In this document: positions 3,042 to 53,366 of the stretch, in pieces
How the letters are laid out: each line of letters opens with the position of its first letter
Numbering within the stretch: position 1 is the first letter of the stretch
Virus record (IMG/VR): IMGVR_UViG_3300029338_000356
Location: 42,633-106,632 of that record
DNA from: a virus
DNA: 64,000 nt
Reading direction: 5' to 3' (one strand)
The notes under the pieces: generated by a model
What the model was told of the DNA's origin: nothing
Databases searched by the model: none
What the model saw: only the letters and a program-made list of their open reading frames with translations
Translations under genes and position numbers: made by a program

Positions 3042-4067
3042 TCAGTTCCCGTCGGCCACGCATTGCGTGAGGAACGACTTCGTTTCGGCTTTTTCCCAAC
3101 TGCTCATGGACAGTTTGTACTTGTCTTTGATGTACACGCGTTTAGCCATATACGAGCATTGGTACGTCTTGTTGGACGGGAGCCAAATGCTGGGCGTTGC
3201 GTCCTTCCACTTGGTCGAGGAACCGTTCAACGCCTCGTCCTTAACAAGGTTCACGCCCTGCTGTTTGATGTTGTTCGCTTCTCCTTCGGACGCGACGAGC
3301 ACTTCCGGGTCGTTCGCATAGGTGATGCGGTCGCCCTTGCGCGAGTCCTTCCACAGTCCGCTGGCCCAAGCGTCGTTGACCGCCACCACATGGTCGATTT
3401 GGACGGCCATGCTGTCTCCGCCTGTTTTCTTCTGTTTGCCGTTGACGGTCTCGTAGGTGTCGCGCTGGAATTTGATGGCATTGCCTGTATATGGGTCTTG
3501 GAGGGTGCCGGTGAGCACCTTGCAGTTCTTGTCCATGGTCACGTCGGTCATGTCGCGTTTGAGGATGTAGTCGCGGGTGGTGCCGTATCCGCAGAGCTGG
3601 TTGCTGTTCTGCCATGTGCCGAAGTCGGTTTTGCGATTGTATCCTTTGGTGTGCGGGGTTGCGGTTTCGATGTCAGCGAGTTTGTCAAGCGCCTGTTTCG
3701 TGGTGATGGGGCTTAAAGCACCTTCAGGAACGCTTGTAGAGGCTTTTTGTGCTTGACTTGAGGAATTGTCCTCGTTTTGTGTCTGCGTCGTTTCTGAGGG
3801 CGTTTCTGCGGCTTCTGGAGTATTGGTTTGCGAATTGGAGCCGGACGACTTCAAGGAAGGCTCCTTCAACCCCAATTTCACATCCGGCTTCACCTTGGAA
3901 TCCTCACCCGGCATCAACTGGGACAAGTCATTGATTTCCGGCAATCCGAAAATCTTCGACATGGGAGTCCACAATCCCAGATTCACGATGAGCACCATGG
4001 CCGTCAACACGACCAGAATGCCGCCAATCAACGAACCGGCGGACATGCCGCCTTTCTTCTTAGCCAT
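3042..4067 (-). CDS. membrane-anchored secreted nuclease-like protein (DUF1524 / HNH-like C-terminal domain)
   Basis: N-terminal TM (LIGGILVVLTAMVLIVNLGLW), S/T-rich linker, C-terminal region with DHVVAVNDAWASGLW ... motif typical of DUF1524/GmrSD-C HNH-like nucleases. Confidence 0.45.
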   Translation of the reverse strand: MAKKKGGMSAGSLIGGILVVLTAMVLIVNLGLWTPMSKIFGLPEINDLSQLMPGEDSKVKPDVKLGLKEPSLKSSGSNSQTNTPEAAETPSETTQTQNEDNSSSQAQKASTSVPEGALSPITTKQALDKLADIETATPHTKGYNRKTDFGTWQNSNQLCGYGTTRDYILKRDMTDVTMDKNCKVLTGTLQDPYTGNAIKFQRDTYETVNGKQKKTGGDSMAVQIDHVVAVNDAWASGLWKDSRKGDRITYANDPEVLVASEGEANNIKQQGVNLVKDEALNGSSTKWKDATPSIWLPSNKTYQCSYMAKRVYIKDKYKLSMSSWEKAETKSFLTQCVADGN

Positions 4068-5420
4068 AGGAAACCTGCCTTTCGATTCTTATTCATAGCT
4101 GCTCATGCAGTTTTTGATGGTCGATTCCTGTTTCACGGGGTGCCGTCGCAACATCGGTCGCGCCGATGGCGTTCAGGTGGTTGTCACCCTCCACAGGCAT
4201 AAGTTCGGGATAGTTCGCAATCCCTACTTGAAGAATGTTCAACGCGGCGTTCAAATCCCTGTCGAGGGTGAGTCCGCATCGTTCGCACTCGTAAGTGCGT
4301 TCGGGTAACGGCATGGGTTTCCTCATGCCGCAGCGGGAGCAGATTTGACTGCTGGGATACCAGCGGTCGATGTTCCGCACCTGCGTCTTGTATGAGAGTT
4401 GGCGTTTGAATTCGTTGAAGCTGCCGTCGCTTATTGATTTGGCGAGACGGTGGTTTTTGAGCATGCCGTTCACGTTCAAATCTTCCATGAAGCATACGGC
4501 GTTCTCGTCCGCTATCGTCCGTGTCGCCTTGTGTAGCCAGTCACGACGTTTGCAAGCCGTATGGTATTCGTAGCGTGCGAGACGCGCTACGGCCTTGCGA
4601 CGGTTCTTGGAGCCTTTCCTCCTGCGTGCGACGATGCGTTGCAAGTGTTTCTTGCGTCGTTCGCGCTTGCGTAGGACGTGCGGGTTCTTCACCGTCAGAC
4701 CGTCCGAGCAGACCGCCAAGGTCTTCACCCCCAAGTCGATTCCGACAACTCCCGTGGCTTGGTTTTCGCACACGCTCATATCGGTTTCGTAGTTGACGCT
4801 GATGAACCATATGCCCGCCTTATGGCTGACTGTGATGTTGTTGATTTTCGTTATCCTCCGTTCATGGGGTATCCTTTCCATCATTCTTATGGTGAGTTTT
4901 TTGGGCAGCCGTACTGTCCGACCGTCGATTTTGACAACACTGCCGTCGATACGGAACGAGTCGTTATGTCCTTTGCGGTGTAGTTTCGGATGGTTGCCAT
5001 GATGTTGAAACAGGTTCGTAAAACCGTTTTGCAGGTCTTTGATTGCCGCTTCCGGCACCCATTTCGAGCATTCTTTGATGAACGGGAACCGTTCGTACTT
5101 GACGCTGTTGAACCATTTCTTGATGCTGTAGTAGTTGTGTTTCGCCACGCCGTCCCGATAGTCCATGTTCCATTTCATCAGGCAGGTGTTGTATGCCAGT
5201 CTGGAGATGCCGCACCAGCGTGCGAGCATATTCCCTGTCTTGTTGTTCACGTTCAATCGGGTTTTGAACGCGCGGCGCATGACGGACATCATGTGCCGTC
5301 CTTGCCGATAAGGTCGAACGCCTTCCTGTAACGGCGCAGCCCGTACAACCTGCACGAGTAGGTGTGAACTATCGTCATCATGTCCTCAACCATTTCCTGC
5401 TCCAAAAAACAAGTTCCGCT
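4068..5420 (-). mobile_element. IS200/IS605-family insertion sequence carrying tnpB only (IS1341-like); ends approximate
   Basis: TnpB ORF fills the element; right end must lie within the 25 bp between tnpB stop (4093) and nuclease start (4067). Confidence 0.5.
4093..5292 (-). CDS. tnpB: TnpB (IS605 OrfB) RNA-guided endonuclease; start at internal Met
   Basis: N-terminal FKTRLNVNNKTGNMLARWCGISRLAYNTCL, RuvC-like core (GIDLGVKTLAV), C-terminal Zn finger CSRCG...CERCG and DRDLNAALNIL; ORF track 4093..5355. Confidence 0.85.
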   Translation of the reverse strand: MMSVMRRAFKTRLNVNNKTGNMLARWCGISRLAYNTCLMKWNMDYRDGVAKHNYYSIKKWFNSVKYERFPFIKECSKWVPEAAIKDLQNGFTNLFQHHGNHPKLHRKGHNDSFRIDGSVVKIDGRTVRLPKKLTIRMMERIPHERRITKINNITVSHKAGIWFISVNYETDMSVCENQATGVVGIDLGVKTLAVCSDGLTVKNPHVLRKRERRKKHLQRIVARRRKGSKNRRKAVARLARYEYHTACKRRDWLHKATRTIADENAVCFMEDLNVNGMLKNHRLAKSISDGSFNEFKRQLSYKTQVRNIDRWYPSSQICSRCGMRKPMPLPERTYECERCGLTLDRDLNAALNILQVGIANYPELMPVEGDNHLNAIGATDVATAPRETGIDHQKLHEQL

Positions 5421-5573: not shown

Positions 5574-6854
5574 TTAGTCGTTCGGACCCTCATTGGGGTC
5601 GCCGGTTACGGAACCGTCATCGGAATTCTGGGATGAACTACTGCTGTTGTTGTCTGACGAATCCGAATCGGAGGAGTCGGAATCGTCATTGTCAGAACCG
5701 TCATCACCGGAACCGCTATCGGAATCCGATGAACTGGAATCGGAAGAATCATCATCGTCATCACTGTTGGAAGAGCCAATCAGCGAACGGTCAATGGCAT
5801 TGCTGAACGCCTTCAACGTGGTCAGACTGCCTTCGGCACCCCAGTCAACGATTTTCGCGCTACCACGGGTCGGATTATGGATGAGGACGGTGACGCTCGT
5901 CTCCACGTCGCTCGTTGAACCAGTGTCCGCGTTCGGGTCGTTGGCCGTGCTTGCATCAACCTTCTTCTCGTAGGGTTTGAACGAGATGCTGACGCTCGCC
6001 GCCGCCCATTCGGGATTGTCGGACTTGTTCTGCTTGTCAACGGTCTTGCCGTCCTTGGTGCATTGCACAAGCCAGTCGAGGGACGAGTTCAGATAAGAAC
6101 CCAAGCTTGCGGGTTGATACATGTGGTCGCTGTTCGGGTCTCCGACAAGAACCGTCAAAGCGTTGGAGTCTTTGCCGATGTATGCTTTAGACCAAGCGCT
6201 GACCACGTTTGTCAGGCTCGTGTTCTGGTCAAGCTGAATGTAATCGTCGGGACGGTACGTGTCCGTATTGCTGTTCGAAGTGACGGTCTTTGGAAGCACG
6301 GTCGGCGTTCCCACCGCAGTAGCCACACCATCGGTGACGGCGACAAGCTGGGTGATATCCCTCGTACTTCCATCCGACTTATCGGTGAGGGACATCTGAT
6401 GACTCCAATACTGGGTGGTGGAACCGTTGGAATCGTCCGAAGTGGATGTGCTGACCTCGGTGGCACCATTCCACCATAGGTTCGCATACCCGTATTGGAA
6501 AGCGCCCTTGTCATCATCCAGCCAACTGTACACGGCTTGCAATGCGACCTGCTTGCCGGGCTTGTCGCCGCTGATTTCCTTGTACTTCTCCGTCAGGTAG
6601 GAACCCATTTCGTTCAACGTGTTGATTGCGCGGACGGAAATCATCGGGGCGACCAGACCGGTGCAGATGAACAGGATGATGAGAACCTTCCACTTCTGGG
6701 TGTTCTTCAACGCCTTCTTCCACGCGGTGAGTTCTATCTCGTCCTTGCGTTCTTTTTCGTCGGCGAACAGGTCGGTCTCATTGTTCGGGTTCTGCTTCGC
6801 CTTCTGCTGTCCCATCGGCTGTTTGCCGTTCTTGTCTTTCTTGCTTCCGAACAC
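5574..6854 (-). CDS. type II membrane protein with extracytoplasmic domain and highly acidic Ser/Asp-rich C-terminal tail; possibly VirB8/TcpC-like conjugation component
   Basis: basic N-terminus, single TM (WKVLIILFICTGLVAPMISV), ~300-aa ectodomain, tail DDDDDSSDSSSSDSDSGSGDDGSDNDDSDSSDSD; sits beside replication/transfer genes. Confidence 0.45.
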   Translation of the reverse strand: MFGSKKDKNGKQPMGQQKAKQNPNNETDLFADEKERKDEIELTAWKKALKNTQKWKVLIILFICTGLVAPMISVRAINTLNEMGSYLTEKYKEISGDKPGKQVALQAVYSWLDDDKGAFQYGYANLWWNGATEVSTSTSDDSNGSTTQYWSHQMSLTDKSDGSTRDITQLVAVTDGVATAVGTPTVLPKTVTSNSNTDTYRPDDYIQLDQNTSLTNVVSAWSKAYIGKDSNALTVLVGDPNSDHMYQPASLGSYLNSSLDWLVQCTKDGKTVDKQNKSDNPEWAAASVSISFKPYEKKVDASTANDPNADTGSTSDVETSVTVLIHNPTRGSAKIVDWGAEGSLTTLKAFSNAIDRSLIGSSNSDDDDDSSDSSSSDSDSGSGDDGSDNDDSDSSDSDSSDNNSSSSSQNSDDGSVTGDPNEGPND

Positions 6855-7494: not shown

Positions 7495-8484
7495 TCAAAA
7501 AGGATTAGCGGCATTCCTTATATCATCTGTCGATGAATCATTTTGTCCCGAATTGCATGAGACATCCGCTTTGATTACATGTCCGTCGCAGGAACCCGAT
7601 TCTTCTTTCACAACAACAGCGTCCACAATCTTGCCGTTGGAATGAATGGACGAAATGCTCGGATAGACGGTTATGCCATATTCATCAAGACTTGCCTTCA
7701 ATTCAGGCCATGATTCCTTGACTTTGTTCAAGGCTGTCGTGAATCGTCTTTTGAATTCTTTGACCGGATAGTCGCCGTCCTCGAACTGAACGGTTAGGTC
7801 TTTCCACGGGACTTTCATTCCGCACGAGCGTAACTTATTTGTTCGGAAAGCCAACCACATGTAAATATCCAAAGCGAGTGCAGAATTAGATATGTTCCTG
7901 ATAATGGACATTTGAGCAGGAACGGCTTCCTCTATTAGCAGAGACCACATTTGAGAGGAGAACGTAATATAGGATTCCTTATCCTCGCCGCCAAAATCAA
8001 TGCATACTTTCTGCGCTACCGGGAAACTCTCATACATGCCGCTATCATCCGAAACCCAATGTTCCAATGTTATATGGGTGCAAGCAAGATTCTTGATTGA
8101 CTCAAGGAGAAGACGTTTGCTTTTCCCACCAGCGGAAGCACCCATCGCTTCACACATGGCACGATAGCTTCCTCCAAGGTTCACAGTCATGCTTTCGAAA
8201 TCGACCCGAGAGTCTTTGTTTTTAATCAAAGTACGAATGTAAAGAAGAAACAATCGGGGCACAGAACCATACGACCACTTACCTTCAGTCGGAGTGATGA
8301 TGATTGCGGAACGCCCGTTGGTCTTCTTGATGTAATTCACGTCAGGTTTGCGTGCGGGAAAGAAACTGAGCTGGGACATCACGGAGGGAGCATACCGATA
8401 ACTGTCACTGTCGATAGGTCTGATAGAATTACCCATGTAACCACTTTCCTTAAGCCTCTGGTTGCCCTGCCCCGGCTGTTCCAC
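7495..8484 (-). CDS. plasmid replication initiator protein (RepA_N-like, iteron-associated)
   Basis: 329-aa ORF adjacent to iterons/AT-rich DNA; ...FFPARKPDVNYIKKTNG...RLFLLYIRTL... pattern of Gram-positive RepA; paralogous to 22759..23523. Confidence 0.5.
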   Translation of the reverse strand: MEQPGQGNQRLKESGYMGNSIRPIDSDSYRYAPSVMSQLSFFPARKPDVNYIKKTNGRSAIIITPTEGKWSYGSVPRLFLLYIRTLIKNKDSRVDFESMTVNLGGSYRAMCEAMGASAGGKSKRLLLESIKNLACTHITLEHWVSDDSGMYESFPVAQKVCIDFGGEDKESYITFSSQMWSLLIEEAVPAQMSIIRNISNSALALDIYMWLAFRTNKLRSCGMKVPWKDLTVQFEDGDYPVKEFKRRFTTALNKVKESWPELKASLDEYGITVYPSISSIHSNGKIVDAVVVKEESGSCDGHVIKADVSCNSGQNDSSTDDIRNAANPF

Positions 8485-9172: not shown

Positions 9173-9835
9173 TTATTCTTCCACCAGATTGATTTCAGAC
9201 AGATAGTCGATGAGTTCCTGCACGACGCTGGAATATTCCTTGTTGTCGATTTCGGTTGTGCCGTACATGTTCTTGACGGCTTCACGTTCCGTGATGACGG
9301 TTTCGAACCGTGCGATGCCTTCCTCATCCAGTTCGCTGATGCTGTTCCGGGCGAGTTTCGTTCTCGGCTTCACGCGTGTCAACAGGACGATGCCGTTGCG
9401 TGCCGCCGCGTATGTGCGTCCCGCGTGGGTCAAATCGGATACGGATGGCTGGCATGGGATTATCACCACGTCGCCCGCGTTTATCGCCGCCTGTACCACT
9501 CCCGCGTCGGACGGTGGGGTGTCGATGATGACCCAGCCTGAATATTTTTCGCGGATGAGTTCCGGATTGTTCAATACGGCTTCGTTGGTTTGCACGACGG
9601 GGAAGCCGAGCGTGTATGGTTTCGCGTCCGGATTGTCCTGTCTGCGTCTGCGGTTTTCCTGTTCGACGTACATTTCCCACATGGTCGCGCCGCCCGTGTT
9701 GTCGGAGTCCAAGACTGTGACTTGTTCCCCGCGTTTGTGCAATAGTTCGGCCAATGCCATTGATGTGGTTGTTTTTCCTGAACCGCCTTTGATGATTGCG
9801 ACGGTGATGATGACCGTATGGTTTTTGACTCTCAT
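9173..9835 (-). CDS. parA: ParA/Soj-family partition ATPase (start at internal Met 9835)
   Basis: deviant Walker A IIKGGSGKTTTSMALA, VLDSDNTGGATMW, IIDTPPS motifs; ORF track 9173..9958. Confidence 0.85.
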   Translation of the reverse strand: MRVKNHTVIITVAIIKGGSGKTTTSMALAELLHKRGEQVTVLDSDNTGGATMWEMYVEQENRRRRQDNPDAKPYTLGFPVVQTNEAVLNNPELIREKYSGWVIIDTPPSDAGVVQAAINAGDVVIIPCQPSVSDLTHAGRTYAAARNGIVLLTRVKPRTKLARNSISELDEEGIARFETVITEREAVKNMYGTTEIDNKEYSSVVQELIDYLSEINLVEE

Positions 9836-10009
9836 GTTCTGGTTTCCTTTTTCTGCTTCCGGTGTGGACGGAATCATGGTGGGGGTATGTTTTTTGTTTC
9901 GATGATAACAACGGCGAAAAGTCGGCACGCCGAACTGGAAAACCGTTCGGAGAAACATTCCAGTAAAACAATGGAACGGCGTACAGGTTTACAGGCGGAA
10001 CAGAAAAAC

Positions 10010-18749: not shown

Positions 18750-19863
18750 CCCAACCCCAATCCTTCTTTATGATGTCTCGCGTCACGTCCCAACCCCATT
18801 CGCTGACTTTGCGAACGTCACGAACCTGCGGAGTATATTGCGCCCACTCGTCGGAGAAAATGTTGCGTCGTGTTCCACTCATATCCGTATAGTCACCGAA
18901 CCTGTCGGTCGGCATCCCATGCTCGAACCATTCGTCCCAGACCGCGATTCCCATTCGTTGCGACACGGTAGGATTGCCCACGACCATTTCCGTCATGCCT
19001 TGCGTGCGTTGTACCACCGCGTTGAACGATTCGTAACCTTCGTTTGCCTTCGGTATCTGCAACCATACGCAGATGAGTCCGCGACGCTTCATCGGAGAAT
19101 AGGCGAGCATCTTAGCCCAGTTCTGCATCTTCTTATCCAATTCGCTGTTGGACGTTTGGATTTCGATACCCGCCAACACATTGTTCCGGCACAACGTCAC
19201 CACGTCGGTCGCGCAAGCCTTGCCGACCTTCGACTCGGCAACAGCCTGTGGGTCAACGCTACGGAATTTTCCCCAACCATCACCGGATGAGAATTTCACA
19301 CGTGAATCGCGTGCCAACATCAATCCCGCGTGCGCCGCATAAGTGTTATGCCGAACATGGAAACGATTCCCTGCGTAATAGGAAACCGCCATCGTCTCAC
19401 GCATCCACTTTTCCATCCCGTACAATTTCATCGCACGGTTGATAAGACGTGGACTGTTCGACGGTGAAAGCCAAACATGATTCACGGTCTGACCGTACAA
19501 TCGTTCCGCCTGACTGAAACCGACGTTGATGATTCCCAAACGGTTCATCGCACCATACAGGTTCGGTTCGTCACGTTCGAAAGCGGGAGCGCCTTTGATG
19601 GAAAGTCCCGCACGTAGTTGGTCAACCGTGCATGTCTTCCAAGTGAACAATGCTCCGAGGATACTCGAAACGAGTTCGCTGTTCGCTTTTACCATTGTCT
19701 CCGAGAACAGTTTGTTCGCAACGAACCACGGGTGGGTCTGCGCGAACAATCCGGGATGCTCCATCTCGAACATGTCGTTGCCTTTATACCAGTCGGCAAT
19801 GCTTCCGGTCTTCCAAAGATTCTCGTCGTTCGGGTCGAAAAGAAAACGGTCATCGAATGTCAC
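18667..19863 (-). CDS. hypothetical protein (Trp-rich C-terminus)
   Basis: 398-aa ORF, 4-bp overlap with upstream ATPase gene (operon). Confidence 0.4.
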   Translation of the reverse strand: MTFDDRFLFDPNDENLWKTGSIADWYKGNDMFEMEHPGLFAQTHPWFVANKLFSETMVKANSELVSSILGALFTWKTCTVDQLRAGLSIKGAPAFERDEPNLYGAMNRLGIINVGFSQAERLYGQTVNHVWLSPSNSPRLINRAMKLYGMEKWMRETMAVSYYAGNRFHVRHNTYAAHAGLMLARDSRVKFSSGDGWGKFRSVDPQAVAESKVGKACATDVVTLCRNNVLAGIEIQTSNSELDKKMQNWAKMLAYSPMKRRGLICVWLQIPKANEGYESFNAVVQRTQGMTEMVVGNPTVSQRMGIAVWDEWFEHGMPTDRFGDYTDMSGTRRNIFSDEWAQYTPQVRDVRKVSEWGWDVTRDIIKKDWGWDVSGWTMPEAYRGGFYGFIGKDCDGLH

Positions 19864-21074
19864 TTACGCCCACGACCTTTCTTTCCTTCACTGTTCTTAG
19901 CGTTCGGATTGAATCTTTCCGGATTGAAACCACGGTCGGGCAAAGCCCAGTTAAGAATGTTCTCCCTAGCAAAAGCAAGACCGGGGTCATCCCATCTGAC
20001 ATCACCGTTGGCGATATGGTTGCTTGCCTCGACCGTCTGATATTCGGTTCCGAGAAACGTTCCGTATCTCGTATAGTCGAGTCGTCTGTAACCTTGCAGT
20101 CCGACCGGAACGGTGTCCTTGATTCCGATGAGTTCCTTCGGAAGATGATGCTCAGCCAAGGCCGTCAGCAGATTCAACGCGTCTATCTGCGTCTGCCTTC
20201 CAGCCTTGACGATAACCAGACAAGGGTCTCCCGATTGAATGTATGGAAGCAGTAAACCGTTGGCGATATTCTCCCTATCATCCAAATCGTCCGCGCTGAT
20301 TCGGTCAAGGTCGAGCACGACGAAATCCCACAGTCGGCGTGCCGCTTGGATGTACTGACGGTATATCTGCCAGTCCACTCCGATACCGGCTGGAGGTGCG
20401 AAACAGATGTCGTATGGAACCCCAAGGTCACGTCCTCGATTGGCTCCGACCTGCACCTGCATGCCCGGTCGCCAGTCGGCTATCGTATGCAATGGCTTGT
20501 CCTGTCTCGGGTCGAAAAAACTACGTTGGCTGGACTGTCTGATGTTGCCGTCGATGAGCAGAACTCGTAATCCGGCTTGCGACGCACGGTCTGCCAACTG
20601 TCGGCTGGACGTGGTCTTCCCCACTCCTCCGGTGTTGGATGTGATGGGTAGGAGAACCGCAGTCTCCTTCACTTTGTTTTGGAGGATATCGACTACGAGA
20701 CGCTTGTCCGCAAGCTGGATTCCCCAATAAGTCCGTGCGAAATCAGCCACGCTCATGCGTAACATCTGTTCGCTCATGCCCATGGCTCCGACCGGTATCT
20801 GACCGGTGTTGCACCAGTAGACCATGTATCCGGCGTTGGCTATCGGAAGCCAGTTTCCAGCCCTGTCAGTGAAGATGATTCCCTTGAACCCGGAGGGCAC
20901 CGGATGTCTTATCAGATAGTCGGCCTGTGCTTGAATATTGTCTGCGGCGGGCACCTGCCAACGCATGTTTCCGGCTCTCGTAAGGGCCTTTTTGATGGTT
21001 GTGAGAAGCCCTCCGGAGCCGATTATCAGGGAAATCGTTCGTTTTTCCAATAAGACCGCCTCCTGATGGGTCAT
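19860..21074 (-). CDS. CpaE/TadZ-like ParA/MinD-family ATPase with N-terminal receiver-like domain
   Basis: 404 aa; deviant Walker A ITSNTGGVGKTTSSRQLA in C-terminal half, VLLIDGN, VVLDLD motifs; N-terminal ~130 aa non-ATPase domain. Confidence 0.6.
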   Translation of the reverse strand: MTHQEAVLLEKRTISLIIGSGGLLTTIKKALTRAGNMRWQVPAADNIQAQADYLIRHPVPSGFKGIIFTDRAGNWLPIANAGYMVYWCNTGQIPVGAMGMSEQMLRMSVADFARTYWGIQLADKRLVVDILQNKVKETAVLLPITSNTGGVGKTTSSRQLADRASQAGLRVLLIDGNIRQSSQRSFFDPRQDKPLHTIADWRPGMQVQVGANRGRDLGVPYDICFAPPAGIGVDWQIYRQYIQAARRLWDFVVLDLDRISADDLDDRENIANGLLLPYIQSGDPCLVIVKAGRQTQIDALNLLTALAEHHLPKELIGIKDTVPVGLQGYRRLDYTRYGTFLGTEYQTVEASNHIANGDVRWDDPGLAFARENILNWALPDRGFNPERFNPNAKNSEGKKGRGRK

Positions 21075-21969
21075 GTTCCGTTGTTTTCATCGGAACGTTT
21101 ACGGTTTTGTCCGAGTTCTGGCATTTATAGTTTTTTGATATTTAGTTTTTTGTTGGTTTTGCTGTTGCTTTTTTCATTGCATTGGCTGTTCCTGTATTGA
21201 TGTTACCTTGTTTTGATTGTCGTTGACCTTGTTAGTGAGACTATTGACCTTTTCGCTGTTGTCGTTTTGTGCTGTGGTTGTTGTGTGCCGTCGTGTTGAT
21301 ACTGATGTTCGGTTTGTTGTCTTGTGATGGTGTGGCTGTTGCTTTTCTTGTTTCTTGGGGTGTTTGGTGATGTCGTTCTTCTGTTCTGTATGTCATATGG
21401 GTTGATATGTTGTTCTTTTGGTGGATGGTTACGTTGCCTCTGTTGTTTTCATACGTTGTATTCCCGATTTAGGGGTAGGCGTTTCTTCTTCTATTGTCCT
21501 GTTCTTCTGTTGCTTCTATTTGATTAAGATTGCTGCTCTTATATTCTCCTTTTCTTCCTTTTGGTTTTTCTTTTCTTTCTGATTTTCTTGGTTCTTCTTT
21601 TTTGATGTGATGGTGTTTGGTTTCTTTTTCTGATTTTTGGTGGGTAGCGCTTCCTTTCTTTTAGTCTTTTTGATTTTTGGTTTTTCTCTTTTTTGAGTCT
21701 GCTATTCATGTTGACCTACCGGCGTGGACTGGATGGTTTTCATGGTTTTTCTGATAATGGTCGGGTGCTGTTCCTTTTTCATATTTTGTTGGGGACTCTT
21801 TTTGGTTCCGCTTTTCTGTTGGAACTACCGGCGCGGGCGGCGCGGGGAATTGTTTTTTTCCCGTTTTCCTCGTTTGGGGATGCTGTCGGGCGTTACACTC
21901 GTGAATTGAAAATACAGAACACCTCGTTCCGACTGTTAACAGCCTGTACGACCGGAGTGTTCGCCGGAT
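21075..21969. other. ~0.9-kb divergent intergenic region with extreme strand compositional asymmetry (plus strand G+T-rich then C+T-rich, almost no A)
   Basis: read directly: 21110-21420 TG-rich (TTGTTG/GTGTGG), 21480-21700 polypyrimidine (TTCTTCTTCT...CTTTTCTTTCT); no ORF >60 aa on the purine-rich strand. Confidence 0.8.
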
Positions 21970-22692
21970 ATGACGAAAGAAGGTATGATGCCAGACTTCA
22001 CCAATTGGGGATTCAACAACAACCAGCAGTCGGAGCAGGACAATGGTTACGGTTCCGACAATTATGCTGAACCGGAGCAGTCTTCTGTCGAGGAGTCGCA
22101 GACGGAATCCGATTCTCTTAATCAGGAGAGTTCGGAGCCTGTCGCTGACGTGTCCGCACCGGCTGATGGTGAGGACATGAACGTGGACGCTGAGTCCACT
22201 GAAACCGAAGACAAGCCGAAGGGGAAAGGTAAGGGCCGTTCCAATCGCAAACCGCGTGAGAAGACCATGCCGCACATCGAGGAACAGTTCGGCAAGAAGC
22301 TGATTCCTCTTGTCAAATCGTTGGATGACGAGCGTGTGGTTTCTCTTGCCAAGGCGTTGACCGATACGAAGAAGAGCACTCCGGAAGCAGTGCTGGACGC
22401 ATTGACCGAACCGAAGAACCAACGTCGAATCTCCGAGTTCGCGTCCGCGTTGGAAGGGTTGGCTACAGCCGAGCCGGGCATGATTGCCGCAGAGGTGACG
22501 TTGGTGTTCGCGCAGGGCAAGGATATGACCAACCTGCTGTTCTCCGTGCTGAACGCGGTCGCGCCGAAGAAGAATTTCGGCCGTCCGGTTGACGACCAGT
22601 CTCCTGCCGGAATGCGTAAGAACCTGAGCAAGATTGTCGATAATTGGGGTGACGGTGTTGACCTTTCCGTTATCGATGAGCTGAAAATCTGA
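21970..22692 (+). CDS. hypothetical protein with acidic low-complexity N-terminal half and basic KGKGKGRSNRKPREK patch
   Basis: 240-aa ORF, first plus-strand gene after the asymmetric region. Confidence 0.45.
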   Translation: MTKEGMMPDFTNWGFNNNQQSEQDNGYGSDNYAEPEQSSVEESQTESDSLNQESSEPVADVSAPADGEDMNVDAESTETEDKPKGKGKGRSNRKPREKTMPHIEEQFGKKLIPLVKSLDDERVVSLAKALTDTKKSTPEAVLDALTEPKNQRRISEFASALEGLATAEPGMIAAEVTLVFAQGKDMTNLLFSVLNAVAPKKNFGRPVDDQSPAGMRKNLSKIVDNWGDGVDLSVIDELKI

Positions 22693-42984: not shown

Positions 42985-44214
42985 ATGTCTTGGGTTGTTG
43001 CCGACGACCTGCCCTCAACCATTCTTTTCTCTTTCCCTAGTGAAGGAAGCATTAAAATCGTGAATGCGAGTCAAAGACGTAGAAGACGCCAACGCAGACT
43101 GCAACAACGCTCGGATGATAAGTACAGGAAGCTCCACCGTTACATCGACTTCCAACAAACATTCGGATTCGACGCGCTCTACCAAGCCGCAAGAAAATGC
43201 AAACGCGGCGTCACGTGGAAAAACACAGTGTTGAACTTCGACAATAGGCGTGCCGTCAACTGTTGGAAACTCGCCCAAGAATTAGAGGACGGCACATACA
43301 AGAAGAGAGCGCCAATCCGATTCGACATTTCCGAACGTGGCAAGCTTCGCCATATCAGCGCGGTCTCATTCCGAGACCGGGTGGTGCAACGCGCTCTGTG
43401 CGATAACAGTCTTGTACCCATCGTGGAAAGCCAACTGATATATGATAATGCGGCGAGCCTTCCGAAACGTGGAACATCGTTCGCCCGAAAACGGTTTGAA
43501 CTACACTATAAGCGGGCTTTGGGTAAATGGGAGCATCCGTATGCTGTCATATTCGACTGTTCCAACTATTTCGGCAGTATCAGCTCCCAACGCGCGTTCG
43601 ATATGATTTCCACCCTGTACCGGAGTATCGCCCGCACCGGACGGGAGAAGCAGGATGTGGAACGGATTCTAACCGTATTGAGAATCTTCGTATTGGACGA
43701 ACCCCACTTAGGGTTAGGTAATCAGACGAGCCAAACCATAGCTATCTGGTATCTGAACAAGGTTGACCACTGGTGCATGTCGCAAGGATTCTACGGACGG
43801 TACATGGACGATGCCTACTGTTTCTGCAAGAATCGTGAACAGGCCGAACGTGTGCTGGCCGGTTATGAGCGGCGTGTCAATCAATTGGGATTGCGGTTGA
43901 ACAAGCATAAGACCCGCATAGTGGACTGTCATACCGGTCAACTCACATTCCTGAAACGCGTATACAGTGTACAGGATGACGGCAGTATTCTTATCCGCAT
44001 GCACCATAAGGCGTTGCGTGCAAGCCGACGGCATGCGCGTAACCTTATCCGCTCATATGATGGCGTGCATGTGGGATTGCGGACAGTTCAGGATTCTTGG
44101 ACGAGCCATGAGAGCACACTGTCGGGTCTAACTCACCGTCGTGGACTGTACGCTCGGGAGAAAGCGTGGTATCGGAGGCATTGTGAAATGCGGAAGCTGG
44201 CTTTTCACCCGTGA
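42985..44214 (+). CDS. DGR reverse transcriptase
   Basis: RT motifs incl. YMDDAY (YxDD) and the DGR-specific LGLGNQTSQ (I/LGxxxSQ); N-terminal LYQAARKCKRGVTWK typical of DGR RTs; true start may be GTG ~43060. Confidence 0.9.
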   Translation: MSWVVADDLPSTILFSFPSEGSIKIVNASQRRRRRQRRLQQRSDDKYRKLHRYIDFQQTFGFDALYQAARKCKRGVTWKNTVLNFDNRRAVNCWKLAQELEDGTYKKRAPIRFDISERGKLRHISAVSFRDRVVQRALCDNSLVPIVESQLIYDNAASLPKRGTSFARKRFELHYKRALGKWEHPYAVIFDCSNYFGSISSQRAFDMISTLYRSIARTGREKQDVERILTVLRIFVLDEPHLGLGNQTSQTIAIWYLNKVDHWCMSQGFYGRYMDDAYCFCKNREQAERVLAGYERRVNQLGLRLNKHKTRIVDCHTGQLTFLKRVYSVQDDGSILIRMHHKALRASRRHARNLIRSYDGVHVGLRTVQDSWTSHESTLSGLTHRRGLYAREKAWYRRHCEMRKLAFHP

Positions 44215-47732: not shown

Positions 47733-47755
47733 TATACTGGGATTGTTCACACAAA
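47733..47755 (+). promoter_or_regulatory. conserved promoter motif copy 2
   Basis: TATACTGGGATTGTTCACACAAA upstream of 47784. Confidence 0.55.
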
Positions 47756-50892: not shown

Positions 50893-51201
50893 ATGAACGA
50901 CACCAAAACCTACTACCAGCCAATCTTCCACGACAACGGCACCATCAGCGTGGTCGCCGGAGACAACACCTACGACCACGCCTACGCGGACAGGCCCATG
51001 AATGAAGCTATCGTGGAAACCTCCCACAGCAAGCCCAATCCAATCAACTGGAAGCACGTCGTATCCAACTGCGACGAACGTTGGAACCTCATCAAAGGCG
51101 ACGCATGCTTGGCAGTTCTGAGCGGCAACTGGGACGTTTTCGAGAGCCGTCACGAAAACAGAATCATGCTTGTCACCCGCAAGGGAACCCGAATCCTCTG
51201 A
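50893..51201 (+). CDS. hypothetical protein
   Basis: 102 aa. Confidence 0.45.
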   Translation: MNDTKTYYQPIFHDNGTISVVAGDNTYDHAYADRPMNEAIVETSHSKPNPINWKHVVSNCDERWNLIKGDACLAVLSGNWDVFESRHENRIMLVTRKGTRIL

Positions 51202-51284
51202 CCTACACTAAAAAACTCGGGGAGAAGTGGCATCCAGACCACTTCTCCCCTCTCTCATATCCGACAAAAAGAAAGAAAATAAAT

Positions 51285-52004
51285 ATGAAGGAACGGAATA
51301 TCTCACTGGAAAACGACCTCATGATGTTAGGTCAGGAGCCAATGGATGAACCCGACTCGTCCACCACCATCGAACTGCAAGAAATCGTGAAGAAGACGGA
51401 ACGAAAAATGCTGAACCCACCGGCACCACCATTGAAATTCGAACCGAAAACAGCGGACAAGTCCACCGAAAACACCGACGAAACCGCCAGCAAGACGAGC
51501 GAGAAAACCACTTCAACAGTAAACAAAACCGCTCCGAAAGCCTACAAGCCCGCCACACGCAAAACCAACAAAACCGCACCTCCAACACCAACCCCCACCA
51601 ACCCGTACGCGCCCGTCGAATACGACTGCAACGGCAAATGGCGTCAACTGTTGACGGGAATCGCCGTCATTGGAATTCTCGTGGCGGCAATCGCATTGTT
51701 GGTAGGAGCGAAAACATGTTGGCGGTTCATCGCCGTAGGCGCATTGACCGCATTCGCCATGCTCCCGCTCTACGGCTGGTTCGACGAACTCGAACGGGAC
51801 ATGGCGGTCAAGGCAGTCGAAAAGGATTACGGGATTCGTATTCTGCAAACAAACGGAGGCAATGGACTCGCGGAAGTGCATTACATGTTCCAGCAGAATC
51901 CAACCGTCGAAGCCGGTATGGTCTCCTATGGTCATGGCTTGGCATGGTTGCGGAGCGTGGGCGGCAAGAAGATTGTCGGACGAAGGCAGCAGGTGAAAAA
52001 ATGA
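51285..52004 (+). CDS. membrane protein with T/P/K-rich N-terminal region
   Basis: two TM helices (LLTGIAVIGILVAAIALLVGA; FIAVGALTAFAMLPLYGWF). Confidence 0.45.
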   Translation: MKERNISLENDLMMLGQEPMDEPDSSTTIELQEIVKKTERKMLNPPAPPLKFEPKTADKSTENTDETASKTSEKTTSTVNKTAPKAYKPATRKTNKTAPPTPTPTNPYAPVEYDCNGKWRQLLTGIAVIGILVAAIALLVGAKTCWRFIAVGALTAFAMLPLYGWFDELERDMAVKAVEKDYGIRILQTNGGNGLAEVHYMFQQNPTVEAGMVSYGHGLAWLRSVGGKKIVGRRQQVKK

Positions 52005-52397: not shown

Positions 52398-52420
52398 TAT
52401 ACTGGAACTGTTCACACAAA
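52398..52420 (+). promoter_or_regulatory. conserved promoter motif copy 7
   Basis: TACTATACTGGAACTGTTCACACAAA. Confidence 0.5.
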
Positions 52421-52442: not shown

Positions 52443-53366
52443 ATGAGCGACAACATCAACTGGAACGAAACCGCAATCTACGAATTCATGCGATTCGAGC
52501 GCGAACCCGAACGCCGAGTATTCCCCGACCGCGACATCACCAAACTCGCCAAAGCCGGACTCATTCAGGAAAACGAGACGGGCGACTGGACTCTCACCCA
52601 AACAGGCGAAGACGAACTCGCCAACATTAGACAGCATTTCAACTCCGGCAAACTCTCCGAACTACCCCTGAAAGTCCGTAACTACTACTTCGACTGGCGC
52701 GTATACGACGAAAAGAAACTACCCGTCAAGGAACTATCCAAAGTTGCCCTACATGACAGGAGCGCCGAGATTCGCAAGAAAGCGGCCACAATGCTCAACA
52801 AGTTCAGCAAGCTCGACAAGGAAACGTCGAACGGTTTGGCCCACGACGAGGATTATCAGATTCGACTCATGGCGGCAAAGAACGCAGACCCTCACCTCTT
52901 CTTCGAGGAGTCGGACGAGCGCGTGGTCAAGACTCTTATCTATAACCATAATTTCGATGAGGAATGTGTCGAACATTGGCTGGACAATCCCAACAGTCAG
53001 ATTCGCGTTCAGGCGGCTCTTCTGACCGAAGACGGCAAGGTGGATGAAGTGTTGGCCCGCCTCGACTCACAGGATGTGGCGCATGTACTGGCCTGCAAGC
53101 CGCAGTGGGCCACGCGTGAACGAGTCATGAACGCTTGGGAGAACGCGGACGAGGTGGGACGTTACAGGCTGGTCAAGGTCATGCGCGACATGCCGGACTC
53201 GTTCATCAATCAGGCGTTCAAGAGCGACGCGTACATGGCCTTGCATGACCGTTTGGAGGAATACCGAGAAGCTGTCCGTCAAGTGTTGGAGCTTGGCTTC
53301 ATGTTTTCCGAGGACAGTGAGATTCGCCGGAAGATTTGGGAGCGTGCCGAGCACGAGATTGGCTGA
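52443..53366 (+). CDS. HEAT-like repeat protein, family 3 (paralogue of 54274..55239)
   Basis: repeated DRSAEIRKKAATML / DEDYQIRLMAAKNADPHL units vs DRSRDVRRKVADYL / DKDPELRKLAAKHTV. Confidence 0.5.
   Translation: MSDNINWNETAIYEFMRFEREPERRVFPDRDITKLAKAGLIQENETGDWTLTQTGEDELANIRQHFNSGKLSELPLKVRNYYFDWRVYDEKKLPVKELSKVALHDRSAEIRKKAATMLNKFSKLDKETSNGLAHDEDYQIRLMAAKNADPHLFFEESDERVVKTLIYNHNFDEECVEHWLDNPNSQIRVQAALLTEDGKVDEVLARLDSQDVAHVLACKPQWATRERVMNAWENADEVGRYRLVKVMRDMPDSFINQAFKSDAYMALHDRLEEYREAVRQVLELGFMFSEDSEIRRKIWERAEHEIG

Follow-up and report, generated by a model that had tools for sequence, protein, structure and literature searches.

Protein-level searches relate the 64,000-nt stretch of DNA analysed here (the window) to the Bifidobacterium breve megaplasmid pMP7017. 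At the head of its transfer operon, no non-coding feature stands out more than an intergenic tract of ~850 nt whose + strand is depleted of adenine or, equivalently, whose opposite strand, the sense strand of the adjacent ParA-like gene, is depleted of thymine. As judged from comparisons with related loci, it is the composition of this tract rather than its sequence that is conserved across the plasmid family, and because of this conservation the block looks functional. Our preferred reading, held tentatively and with somewhat less than even confidence, is that the tract serves the conjugation operon as an untranslated, U-poor 5' leader of great length or as a regulatory spacer.

Base composition of the tract

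Between positions 21075 and 21969, the + strand contains A, T, G and C at frequencies of 0.108, 0.478, 0.248 and 0.165, respectively, compared with window means of 0.243 for A and 0.230 for T. The segment from 21053 to 21909 (+ strand A 0.10, T 0.49) is both the longest and the most strongly AT-skewed one of the 64 kb. In 200-nt windows, the AT skew stays below -0.5 without a break over 21018-21915, with a mean of -0.68 (window-wide mean 0.03, sd 0.24), and among all 300-nt windows of the 64 kb, the lowest A content (0.08) is found at 21145 and the highest T content (0.563) at 21395. None of the other segments with an AT skew below -0.5 is longer than ~470 nt, and all of them are located within coding low-complexity regions. 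These analyses bear out the + strand asymmetry that a first-pass annotation had described at this position and show it to be the strongest in the 64 kb, although its purity had been overstated. The stretch at 21110-21420, described as almost purely G+T, is indeed rich in these bases but contains only 78% of them; the polypyrimidine stretch at 21480-21700 is C+T-rich at a purity limited to 76.5%; and adenine, said to be nearly absent over ~600 bp, is depleted 2.5- to 3-fold, with 7-9% remaining. The longest A-free runs measure 51 and 42 nt, and equally long ones occur elsewhere in the window, so that the unusual feature is the maintenance of A depletion across ~850 nt rather than the length of A-free runs. 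The GC content of the tract is 36-42% (window mean 53%), and its + strand GC skew ranges from +0.2 to +0.46 over 21100-21450.

The T depletion of the sense strand is not a plasmid-wide property, since other non-coding spacers in the same operon (T 0.22-0.31) and third codon positions (T 0.19, A 0.155) lack such a bias. Fourier analysis of the tract detected no 10-11-nt and no 3-nt periodicity, searches for tandem and dispersed repeats within it returned merely weak two-copy families, and a k-mer search across lineages found no common internal motif, recovering the GC box described below and AAGAA-type low complexity. The residual T prefers the context CATCA. A DGR variable region was rejected as an explanation: no part of the tract has a second copy in the 64-kb window, and the one RVT_1 gene present lies at a distance of 21 kb.

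Flanking genes and coding potential

The tract separates divergent genes, as had been noted at the outset, with a ParA/CbiA-like ATPase identified by Pfam on its left and an acidic protein on its right (Table 1). The ParA-like protein also matches NCBIfam models of the ParA/SopA/MinD type, every one of them below the cut-off, and its gene shares a stop/start overlap with the next one, in the same gene order as in pMP7017. The coupling-protein-like ATPase shows 58.8% identity to pMP7017 and 25-27% identity to actinobacterial proteins annotated as 'type IV secretory system conjugative DNA transfer'. Among the encoded proteins, none was assigned to a known relaxase family, and the region shows no recognisable nic consensus; for the 398-aa candidate DNA-processing enzyme, there is no described nic site.

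Table 1. Coordinates of the tract, its sequence modules and the flanking genes in the window
Feature	Position	Strand	Remarks
Coupling-protein-like ATPase, VirD4/TraG type, 886 aa	15554..18214	-	tblastn
MarR-like wHTH + PD-(D/E)xK nuclease fold, 398 aa	18667..19863	-	candidate DNA-processing enzyme
ParA/CbiA-like P-loop ATPase, 404 aa	19860..21074	-	opens leftward conjugation (T4SS) operon; Pfam CbiA, AAA_31, ParA matches
Proximal inverted repeat GTTCCG-N10-CGGAAC	21075..21096	.	abuts ParA-like start codon
Proximal T-poor conserved block	21075..21249	-	probably 5'UTR/RBS and operator
Three direct repeats T(T/G)ACCTT (sense AAGGTNA), spaced 20-21 nt	21203..21251	+	candidate protein-binding sites
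Hypervariable, composition-constrained core of T(U)-depleted tract	21250..21800	-	pi, indels, stable A content, weak folding
110-nt direct duplication, unit GCCGGTRG..GAAWAGCRGAMYC-AAAAAAG	21690..21836	.	repeat D3
Distal inverted repeat (hairpin B) GTTCC-N11-GGAAC	21805..21825	.	
GC box CGCGCCGCCCGCGCC (sense strand)	21830..21844	-	best-conserved intergenic sequence
Hairpin A GGGAA-N8-TTCCC	21845..21862	.	adjoins GC box; terminator-like on + strand
Divergent promoter/5'UTR zone	21863..21969	.	putative minus-strand -10 candidate TATTTT at 21909-21914
Divergent 240-aa protein	21970..22692	+	disordered acidic N-terminus, helical C-terminal domain

The block itself is non-coding. Each frame of the tract on either strand contains 6-16 stops in pMP7017 and in the family of the window itself, in agreement with the initial statement that the region lacks a credible ORF. 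In lineages L011 and L013, each sense frame has by chance 1-3 stops, owing to a T-free stretch, but gene callers predict nothing there. Nucleotide diversity (pi) by phase amounts to 0.119, 0.093 and 0.118 in the tract, as opposed to 0.013, 0.005 and 0.079 in ParA, and thus shows no codon periodicity; the indels are mostly one-nt (163) and two-nt (37) changes, and no Shine-Dalgarno-like sequence accompanies any of the core's few ATGs. That the tract could be the remnant of, or a recoded, minus-strand gene for a basic K/R/E/Q/T/P-rich low-complexity protein is suggested by open stretches of 233-257 codons in the T-poor sequence of L011, by the 61-94-aa ORFs that gene callers now and then predict in the tract and by a 91-aa CDS listed by NCBI within the pMP7017 tract, though on the opposite strand. 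We consider this scenario scarcely credible and the gene or pseudogene reading largely refuted: apart from the stops, the lack of codon periodicity and the indels that are mostly not multiples of three, there is no common frame or start, the open stretches of L011 and L013 are private to these lineages, and none of the 11 lineages has an ORF conserved in another. Similarly, no relative was found to carry an intact or frameshifted low-complexity gene across the region; the discovery of a frameshifted gene of this kind in related sequences is what the first-pass annotation had named as refuting its own proposal.

Conservation in related plasmids

Searched by megablast with the region as query, plasmid and phage collections gave no match, and neither did an initial scan of genome contigs. 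A T-depleted, A-rich tract of 170-880 nt is present at the same place in all 63 related loci tested, whose ParA identity goes down to 43%, and ends 0-370 nt ahead of the ParA ATG. The T-depleted strand is the ParA-sense strand in every case (T 6-13%, A 31-55%). In 11 of 11 lineage representatives, the tract constitutes the longest AT-skewed segment of the locus, with an AT skew of up to +1.00 in 100-nt windows of L011 and L013. T depletion and polarity persist where the tracts are unalignable and the ParA proteins are 43-60% identical, and the composition is conserved from human-gut Bifidobacterium plasmids to Pseudoscardovia. The earlier notion that promoters alone do not explain the skew is supported. 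In G-rich lineages (sense G 0.33 in L096), T depletion alone persists, which rules out simple C-deamination of an exposed strand. One Arthrobacter plasmid contains a skewed non-coding stretch near its T4CP gene; because its polarity is different, it was not counted as evidence of generality.

Within the window's own family, the sense strand of the core passes from an A/G-rich part (~21480-21700) to an A/C-rich, rut-like part (~21100-21470). With a pi of 0.08-0.28, the core is as variable as synonymous sites (0.079) or more so, and it differs between family members by many homopolymer-length changes and by polymorphisms of 45, 48 and 110 nt (duplication, insertion or deletion). The + strand A content is nevertheless held at 5.5-10% among 29 variants, and A-gains (26) are about as frequent as A-losses (24) among core polymorphisms, so that the composition is stationary. 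Rare alleles include 12 A-gains and 6 A-losses, numbers too small for significance, and the polarised polymorphisms are suggestive only with respect to the question of selection versus mutation bias. Since the sequence is variable, its composition is stationary and both the other spacers and third codon positions are unbiased, the composition looks selected.

Sequence modules at the tract edges

The edges of the tract are conserved in sequence, and the inverted repeats for which the first-pass annotation had proposed to look are indeed present there in conserved form, beside the conserved GC box. The proximal block has a pi of only 0.007-0.03, compared with 0.079 at synonymous sites, is ~93% identical to L011 despite a ParA identity of just 77%, and may possibly include a promoter (CTATAAATGCC at 21120-21130). 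The inverted repeat next to the ParA-like start codon (family pi 0.013) is conserved in L011 and recurs as TTCCG-N11-CGGAA in pMP7017 and L086. When we looked for a parS/parC array, in view of the ParA-like ATPase, we found the three T(K)ACCTT repeats in this proximal block and, by repeat and k-mer searches, no repeat array within the skewed core. TKACCTTG occurs 10 times in the window (3.7 expected), AGGTCA and CAAGGT are enriched across lineages, and L011, L013 and L054 contain related repeats.

At the distal edge, the unit of the 110-nt duplication is conserved across lineages, and the duplication is deleted in L003/L008 by a deletion between CTACCGGCG copies. Hairpin B is missing in natural deletion variants of the L003 type; elsewhere, its arms change yet stay complementary (GGGTCC/GGACCC in L013, GGTTCC/GGAACC in L018, a 10-bp stem in L086). 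The GC box, unique in the window, is found as an exact 15-mer in 35 of 110 loci, comprising lineages with a ParA identity of 48-100%, and is near-exact or reiterated one to four times in other lineages. Hairpin A has counterparts of other sequence in pMP7017 (GAAAAG/CTTTTC), L015 (GAAAAC/GTTTTC), L011 and L049. The distal module is no better folded than shuffled sequence (z = -1.06). Diversity is also low at 21900-21974 (pi 0.017-0.03). A consensus scan for sigma-70-type promoters in the distal zone at 21863-21969 yielded no passing site; in L086, the sense strand has a TATACTG -10-like element immediately ahead of the GC box.

RNA folding and resemblance to Rho loading sites

Secondary-structure prediction indicated little folding on either strand. 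The minimum free energy (MFE) of the ParA-sense RNA is -3 to -10 kcal/mol per 150 nt, compared with a window mean of -42.6 (sd 9.3), and the plus strand, at -11 to -25 per 150 nt, is likewise weakly folded. The sense RNA folds less than the ParA coding control in 11 of 11 lineages, and Rfam yielded no family for this region of the window at E <= 1, nor, at gathering score, for any of 10 relatives. A long structured non-coding RNA, as initially considered, is therefore not borne out. The same applies to an ssi/sso region, for which extensive single-strand hairpins are needed, whereas both strands fold weakly and no inverted repeat lies inside the tract. Nor does the tract qualify as H-DNA or triplex-forming DNA, for which a homopurine-homopyrimidine mirror repeat of roughly at least 15 nt was required: its overall purity is 76%, runs made up of pyrimidines alone do not exceed 19 nt, and no mirror repeat consisting solely of pyrimidines has arms of at least 8 nt.

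With next to no predicted structure, the sense RNA bears a strong resemblance to the sites at which Rho loads (rut sites). Defining rut-like windows as 78-nt windows with C/G >= 1.3, G <= 20% and MFE >= -6, we obtained 36 of 58 windows in the tract (62%) as opposed to 37 of 4860 elsewhere on the same strand (0.8%). Upstream rut-like windows are present in 7 of 11 lineages, compared with none of the 187 coding windows in each, and the other four (L011, L086, L096 and L018) fall outside this definition. Across lineages, T depletion alone is universal.

Discussion

In the preferred reading, transcription would start near the conserved hairpin-GC-box module (~21830-21915) and head leftwards, and ~700-830 nt of A-rich, U-poor untranslated RNA would precede the ParA-like start at 21074. 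Being nearly devoid of U, this RNA would have almost no secondary structure, no intrinsic terminator and few start codons, and it would therefore be naked and ribosome-free. Naked RNA of this kind is the favoured substrate of the termination factor Rho and possibly of other single-strand RNA binders, and the leader would act as a checkpoint, with the roughly 30-kb transfer operon remaining off unless termination is overcome. The presence and role of Rho in Bifidobacterium are assumed from Actinomycetota in general. We infer sense-direction transcription from the distal end, an action of Rho or another factor and a gating of conjugation, and the fixed polarity of the tract relative to the operon in all 63 loci speaks for this arrangement. 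Against it, the conserved proximal 175 nt could hold the real promoter, which would place the tract upstream of the transcription start. Moreover, 5' leaders of B. breve are normally ~51 nt long (PMC5746004), so that an 800-nt leader would be far outside the norm. The papers on pMP7017 and their supplement, including the transcriptome paper, make no mention of the region, an oriT or conjugation genes.

Rho-dependent leader attenuators are known from E. coli rho and from the Salmonella mgtA and corA leaders. Like rut regions (reviewed in PMC12360218), the tract contains at least 80 nt in which C exceeds G, G is scarce and neither structure nor translation is predicted, but it is several times longer, and its universal trait is U depletion and A-richness rather than C-richness. 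A Gram-positive precedent is provided by the conjugation operon of pLS20, which begins with a 456-nt attenuator leader (PMC13401043). Both this cATT 'zipper' attenuator with its conAn antitermination system and the tract place several hundred non-coding nucleotides immediately ahead of the gene that opens a very long conjugation operon and have a presumed gating role (PMC13401043, PMC8191782). However, the pLS20 leader acts via a long imperfect stem, a terminator and an antiterminator, whereas the tract has almost no predicted structure and no U-tracts and keeps its composition rather than pairing. The hosts also differ (Bacillota versus Actinomycetota), and there is no sequence similarity. 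Given that the sense strand has neither a long stem nor a U-tract terminator, a zipper attenuator of the pLS20 type was rejected.

A possible, if doubtful, alternative puts the function at the DNA level, with the tract forming part of a transfer origin in which hairpin A, the GC box and hairpin B would be recognised and nicked by the DNA-processing enzyme and the tract would serve as an unwinding or helicase-loading zone or as the first or last single-stranded DNA for the coupling protein. A position at the start of the T4SS operon, from which transcription units diverge, would suit this role, and so would the neighbouring genes, which code for a ParA-like ATPase, a nuclease of the wHTH + PD-(D/E)xK type and a coupling protein. 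Comparable ParA-like first genes are those for VirC1 in Ti plasmids and for TraA in the Bacteroides element CTnDOT. pMP7017 conjugates, yet MOB-suite (via PLSDB) types it as non-mobilizable, which we read as no known relaxase family having been detected, so that an unconventional oriT is to be expected somewhere. Further points in favour are the exact preservation and uniqueness of the GC box, the complementary arm changes in the flanking inverted repeats, the low GC content of the tract and the orientation of the genes to the right of the acidic gene, which mostly point to the region, as in leading regions. The Ti-plasmid border with its 'overdrive', bound by the ParA-like VirC1, is an oriT with accessory sites, and the tract resembles it in being intergenic beside genes for a ParA-like ATPase, DNA processing and coupling and in having a short conserved core with inverted repeats. 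Nevertheless, the tract differs from oriT regions in the lack of a known relaxase or nic consensus, the ssb and reported anti-restriction genes of pMP7017 are located elsewhere (~160 kb), and hairpin B is absent from the L003-type deletion variants. In addition, relaxosome melting covers tens rather than hundreds of nucleotides, and oriT models leave both the one-strand lack of T over 300-900 nt and the five-fold length range unexplained. We know of no described oriT with a 300-900-nt strand-asymmetric tract. More speculatively, and at a probability that we rate as low, the tract may be a cis element defined by composition, a 'U-less' (T-less) track of several hundred nucleotides before the transfer genes that would keep RNA or single-stranded DNA completely unfolded and devoid of start, stop and terminator signals. 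It could be the lane on which Rho or another ring motor loads and thereby gates conjugation, or an entry lane for an unconventional, relaxase-free wHTH + PD-(D/E)xK machinery. Such a track may perhaps extend beyond pMP7017-type megaplasmids to other actinobacterial conjugative plasmids.

It is unlikely, in our view, that the tract is a functionless low-complexity spacer, in which a short A-rich 5'UTR or upstream region was expanded by replication slippage and local duplication, its composition is maintained by a locally acting, strand-biased mutation process or by rapid duplication and deletion, and nothing but the flanking modules is of importance. While the 170-880-nt length range, the homopolymer-length changes and larger polymorphisms, a diversity at or above the synonymous level and the lack of over-represented internal motifs besides AAGAA-type low complexity would all be in keeping with this idea, polarity and T depletion recur in unalignable tracts, the composition is stationary although the neutral sites of the plasmid are ~65% GC and unskewed, and the other spacers are unbiased. 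Moreover, replication would be expected to skew the tract the other way, given where ori and ter lie in pMP7017; we infer this from its polarity switches at 117,611 and 37,431 (PMC8313286). Quite improbable is a G/U-rich antisense or divergent non-coding RNA from the + strand, reaching from near the ParA-like start to the hairpin/T-run sites at 21792-21870, possibly with an R-loop on the C-rich template. The positive GC skew over 21100-21450 and two terminator-like sites (21792-21809 and 21845-21862) point in this direction, and a displaced G+T-rich strand is a classical sign of single-strand exposure. However, the promoter scan found no site for such an RNA, the terminator-like tail is not conserved in pMP7017, the positive GC skew is missing in several lineages (L086 and L096, with sense G >= C), and the supposedly exposed strand is not depleted of C in every lineage.

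To our knowledge, pMP7017-type plasmids are the only known conjugative plasmids of bifidobacteria. Being conspicuous and conserved in composition, the tract offers a testable handle on the switching or the start site of their transfer. It would also be a clean example of one-strand base composition selected without selection on sequence, and composition-defined elements of this kind are overlooked by alignment- and motif-based searches. Megaplasmids of this type have been reported in ~10% of human gut microbiome samples, mostly from infants and mothers (PMC10832533). Of the plasmid-specific promoter motif, the window contains 13 copies, none of which lies in the tract region, and a candidate common 5'UTR motif, GRAAACCGTDAAY, is not enriched. 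In pMP7017, the 5'UTRs behind recognisable copies of this promoter motif measure 25-150 nt (PMC10832533); the tract exceeds them 5- to 30-fold in length and lacks the motif, but these short 5'UTRs of the same plasmid family likewise have an A-rich, T-poor sense strand.

Extent and composition of the skewed tract

Base content and a sliding AT skew computed over the entire 64 kb bear out the strand asymmetry that the first-pass annotation had described for the interval between two divergent transcription units. On the plus strand, positions 21075-21969 have base fractions of 0.108 (A), 0.478 (T), 0.248 (G) and 0.165 (C), as compared with window averages of 0.243 for A and 0.230 for T, and among all 300-nt windows, A reaches its minimum (0.08) and T its maximum (0.563) inside this block. 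In 200-nt windows, the AT skew stays below -0.5 throughout 21018-21915 (mean -0.68), as against a mean of 0.03 (sd 0.24) over the whole window. The remaining skewed segments are each shorter than about 470 nt and all lie within coding low-complexity sequence; once an A+T content of at least 45% is also demanded, 21053-21909 (857 nt) is the sole long match. The near-purity originally ascribed to the two halves was overstated, since they are 78% G+T and 76.5% C+T and contain 7-9% A. The divergent flanking genes are as described (see table), and the block indeed lacks a credible open reading frame, with 6-16 stops in each of the six frames.

Features of the window in and around the skewed tract (pi, nucleotide diversity among 29 distinct sequences of the window's own family)
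Feature	Position	Strand	pi	Remark
ParA/CbiA-like ATPase gene	19860-21074	minus		left flank of block
Proximal segment	21075-21249		0.007-0.03	strongly conserved, lower than synonymous sites
Core	21250-21800		0.08-0.28	hypervariable; one small conserved island, 21575-21624
110-nt direct duplication	21690-21836			duplicates conserved unit after GC box
Hairpin B and GC box	21800-21849		about 0.04	distal inverted repeat, 21805-21825; GC box, 21830-21844 (minus)
Distal segment	21900-21974		0.017-0.03	conserved
Acidic 240-aa protein gene	21970-22692	plus		right flank of block
GmrSD-like endonuclease gene	3042-4067
IS605 OrfB/TnpB gene	4093-5355
T-poor coding region	5574-6854	minus		low complexity
RepA_C replication-protein gene	7495-8484
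Second ParA gene	9173-9958			ordinary size
409-aa ORF	42985-44214	plus		reverse-transcriptase domain (Pfam RVT_1, E = 3e-14)
T-poor coding region	51081-52004	plus		low complexity

The two T-poor coding regions, which exemplify low-complexity stretches such as a C-terminal tail rich in Ser/Asp and a linker rich in Thr/Lys/Pro, are locally as poor in T on the sense strand as the tract, but are GC-richer and in frame.

Plasmid family and gene setting

Nucleotide searches with the window against plasmid and phage collections gave no match. At the protein level, the window falls into the family of pMP7017 (NZ_KM406416.1), a conjugative Bifidobacterium breve megaplasmid: its 886-aa coupling-protein-like ATPase shares 58.8% identity with the pMP7017 counterpart, and gene order is common to both. 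The ParA-like protein has homologs in Bifidobacterium sp. SO1, B. callitrichidarum and Pseudoscardovia suis, and many more are encoded on contigs of 170-224 kb from human-gut metagenomes. Its gene is the first of a translationally coupled operon. Behind it come, in this order, the genes for proteins of 398 and 146 aa, for the type IV coupling protein and for further products, including a 1334-aa membrane protein. Given the second ParA gene of the window, this first gene does not encode the plasmid's sole partition-type ATPase. No template-repeat relation was found between the reverse-transcriptase gene and the tract.

The pMP7017 literature searched does not mention the tract region. NCBI annotates a hypothetical 91-aa protein (WP_172685975.1) within the pMP7017 tract, at 53034-53309; it lies on the strand that is poor in A and hence in stops, and is probably a spurious call arising from this property.

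Conservation of composition

All 63 related loci compared, with ParA identities from 100% down to 43%, possess a tract of 170-880 nt with 6-13% T and 31-55% A on the ParA-sense strand, ending 0-370 nt ahead of the start codon. In none of 11 lineage representatives does the 7-20-kb locus have a longer AT-skewed segment, and two loci (L011 and L013) contain 100-nt windows with zero T. The pMP7017 counterpart (52620-53313) is the longest such region of the whole 190-kb plasmid. The asymmetry is conserved throughout the family; the sequence itself is not. The lineages also share an internal layout, which comprises, 5' to 3' on the sense strand, a small hairpin, the GC box CGCGCCGCCCGCGCC, a second inverted repeat inside the conserved unit GCCGGTRG...GAAAAGCGGAMYC-AAAAAAG, an A/G-rich block, an A/C-rich block, a conserved proximal block and the start codon. 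Even in lineages whose ParA is just 48-57% identical to that of the window, the 15-nt GC box matches exactly; it occurs once in the window and is reiterated one to four times in some lineages.

Within the window's own family, diversity in the ParA-like gene shows the pattern expected for a gene (0.013, 0.005 and 0.079 at the three codon positions). The hypervariable core of the tract displays no three-base periodicity among the 29 sequences, and its indels are chiefly 1 nt (163) and 2 nt (37) long, accompanied by 45-, 48- and 110-nt polymorphisms (duplication, insertion or deletion). The aperiodic variation and short indels exclude that the core encodes a protein or did so until recently; the pseudogene remnant that the first-pass annotation had set against its own interpretation was looked for and does not apply. 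Plus-strand A remains within 5.5-10% in 29 of 29 variants, and changes creating an A (26) match those removing one (24), so that the composition is stationary.

The 110-nt duplication is precisely missing, by a deletion between CTACCGGCG copies, from some otherwise near-identical plasmids (L003, L008, L038). In just one relative (L006), 48 bp of normal composition (CTTCCTTGAAAGGGAATAATCAGTGGCCTTGAAAGCTGCAAATATTCA), flanked by CTTCCTT direct repeats, are inserted at a site between positions 21650 and 21651 of the window.

Folding, start codons and promoters

Because U is missing, sense-strand RNA (or single-stranded DNA) would hardly be able to fold. Across 21150-21650, its minimum free energy lies between -3 and -10 kcal/mol per 150 nt, as compared with a window mean of -42.6 +/- 9.3 and an average of -27.6 for low-GC windows, and the direction is the same in 11 of 11 lineages. 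This weak folding lends no support to the structured non-coding RNA or the single-strand initiation region (ssi/sso) proposed in the first-pass annotation; its H-DNA candidate is likewise unsupported. Between 21100 and 21800, the sense strand contains eight ATG and neither GTG nor TTG (24 potential starts in an equal-length coding control), and no Shine-Dalgarno-like sequence was found upstream of the core ATGs. Of the 58 windows in the tract, 36 qualify as rut-like when criteria modeled on E. coli are applied (78 nt, C/G >= 1.3, G <= 20%, MFE >= -6), versus 37 of 4860 elsewhere on this strand. Such windows lie upstream of ParA in seven of 11 lineages, and none of the 187 windows taken from the coding sequence downstream qualifies in any lineage.

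The plasmid-specific promoter/operator motif TATACTGGnnyTGTTCACACAAA described for pMP7017 (PMC10832533) occurs 13 times in the window (26861-58437, e.g. 47733-47755 and 52398-52420; 0 expected), and none of these copies falls in the tract region. All but one are on the plus strand, in the 47-58 kb region, where each precedes a short 5'UTR and then a gene; these 5'UTRs are A-rich and T-poor, as is the tract.

Selection or mutation bias

Selection, rather than mutation, appears to account for the composition of the tract. T-depletion is absent from other non-coding spacers of the operon (sense-strand T 0.22-0.31), and third codon positions are about 65% GC (T 0.19, A 0.155), so that a neutral spacer would be expected to become GC-rich and free of skew. 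The skew would also run opposite to the replication-associated skew expected for pMP7017 from its published ori and ter positions (PMC8313286). Among rare alleles, plus-strand A-gains exceed A-losses (12 versus 6), a direction that fits purifying selection on composition, with numbers too small for significance. An explanation by simple deamination of cytosines on an exposed strand was considered and rejected, as this would deplete C on the T-rich strand too, which is not so in the G-rich lineages L096, L078 and L086; T-depletion of the sense strand is the sole compositional feature universal across lineages.

Possible roles of the tract

In kind, the tract would class as a regulatory leader or intergenic control region of the conjugation operon whose unusual property is that composition is kept, not sequence. 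Its polarity and composition, together with analogy, lead us to favor, tentatively and at somewhat less than even odds, an exceptionally long, untranslated, unstructured and U-poor leader or regulatory spacer belonging to the leftward operon. Among possible mechanisms, Rho-dependent attenuation would be the most concrete. Conjugation operons of Gram-positive bacteria are known to have long regulatory leaders, the 456-nt leader of pLS20 being one example (PMC13401043); however, these act through structure, whereas the tract has the opposite, unstructured design. Several points clearly weaken this interpretation: promoter prediction gave no site at the distal end of the tract, and the conserved proximal 175 nt may hold the real promoter. 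Moreover, four of 11 lineages do not have C>G, and the average B. breve 5'UTR measures about 51 nt (PMC5746004).

The main rival, a DNA-level role at an unconventional origin of transfer, appears unlikely overall but is made plausible by the conserved GC box with its flanking inverted repeats, nearby genes for a nuclease and a coupling protein and the absence of a known relaxase; pMP7017 has no recognized relaxase and is typed as 'non-mobilizable' in PLSDB. Such an origin leaves unexplained both the long T-depletion of one strand and the five-fold variation in tract length. A functionless spacer driven by slippage, at odds with a composition that looks selected, is less likely still; a G/U-rich plus-strand RNA or R-loop is improbable, and a degenerate gene, given the aperiodic core, has a negligible chance. 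The remaining probability is reserved for other explanations.

Skewed sequence was also observed in the Arthrobacter caoxuetaonis plasmid NZ_CP099467.1 (L115, 9800-10600), where a 1.6-kb gap in the annotation, upstream of the coupling-protein gene, contains a G/T-rich stretch of about 500 nt that is nearly devoid of A (AT skew as low as -0.93), followed by about 300 nt that are T-poor. The gap includes reiterated GCGCGGGGCGG boxes and hairpins of GGGGCTTCGCCCC, its ORFs are all short and of low complexity, and its polarity differs from that of the Bifidobacterium tract. Its sequence may hint that skewed non-coding tracts near type IV secretion system genes are more widespread in the Actinomycetota.
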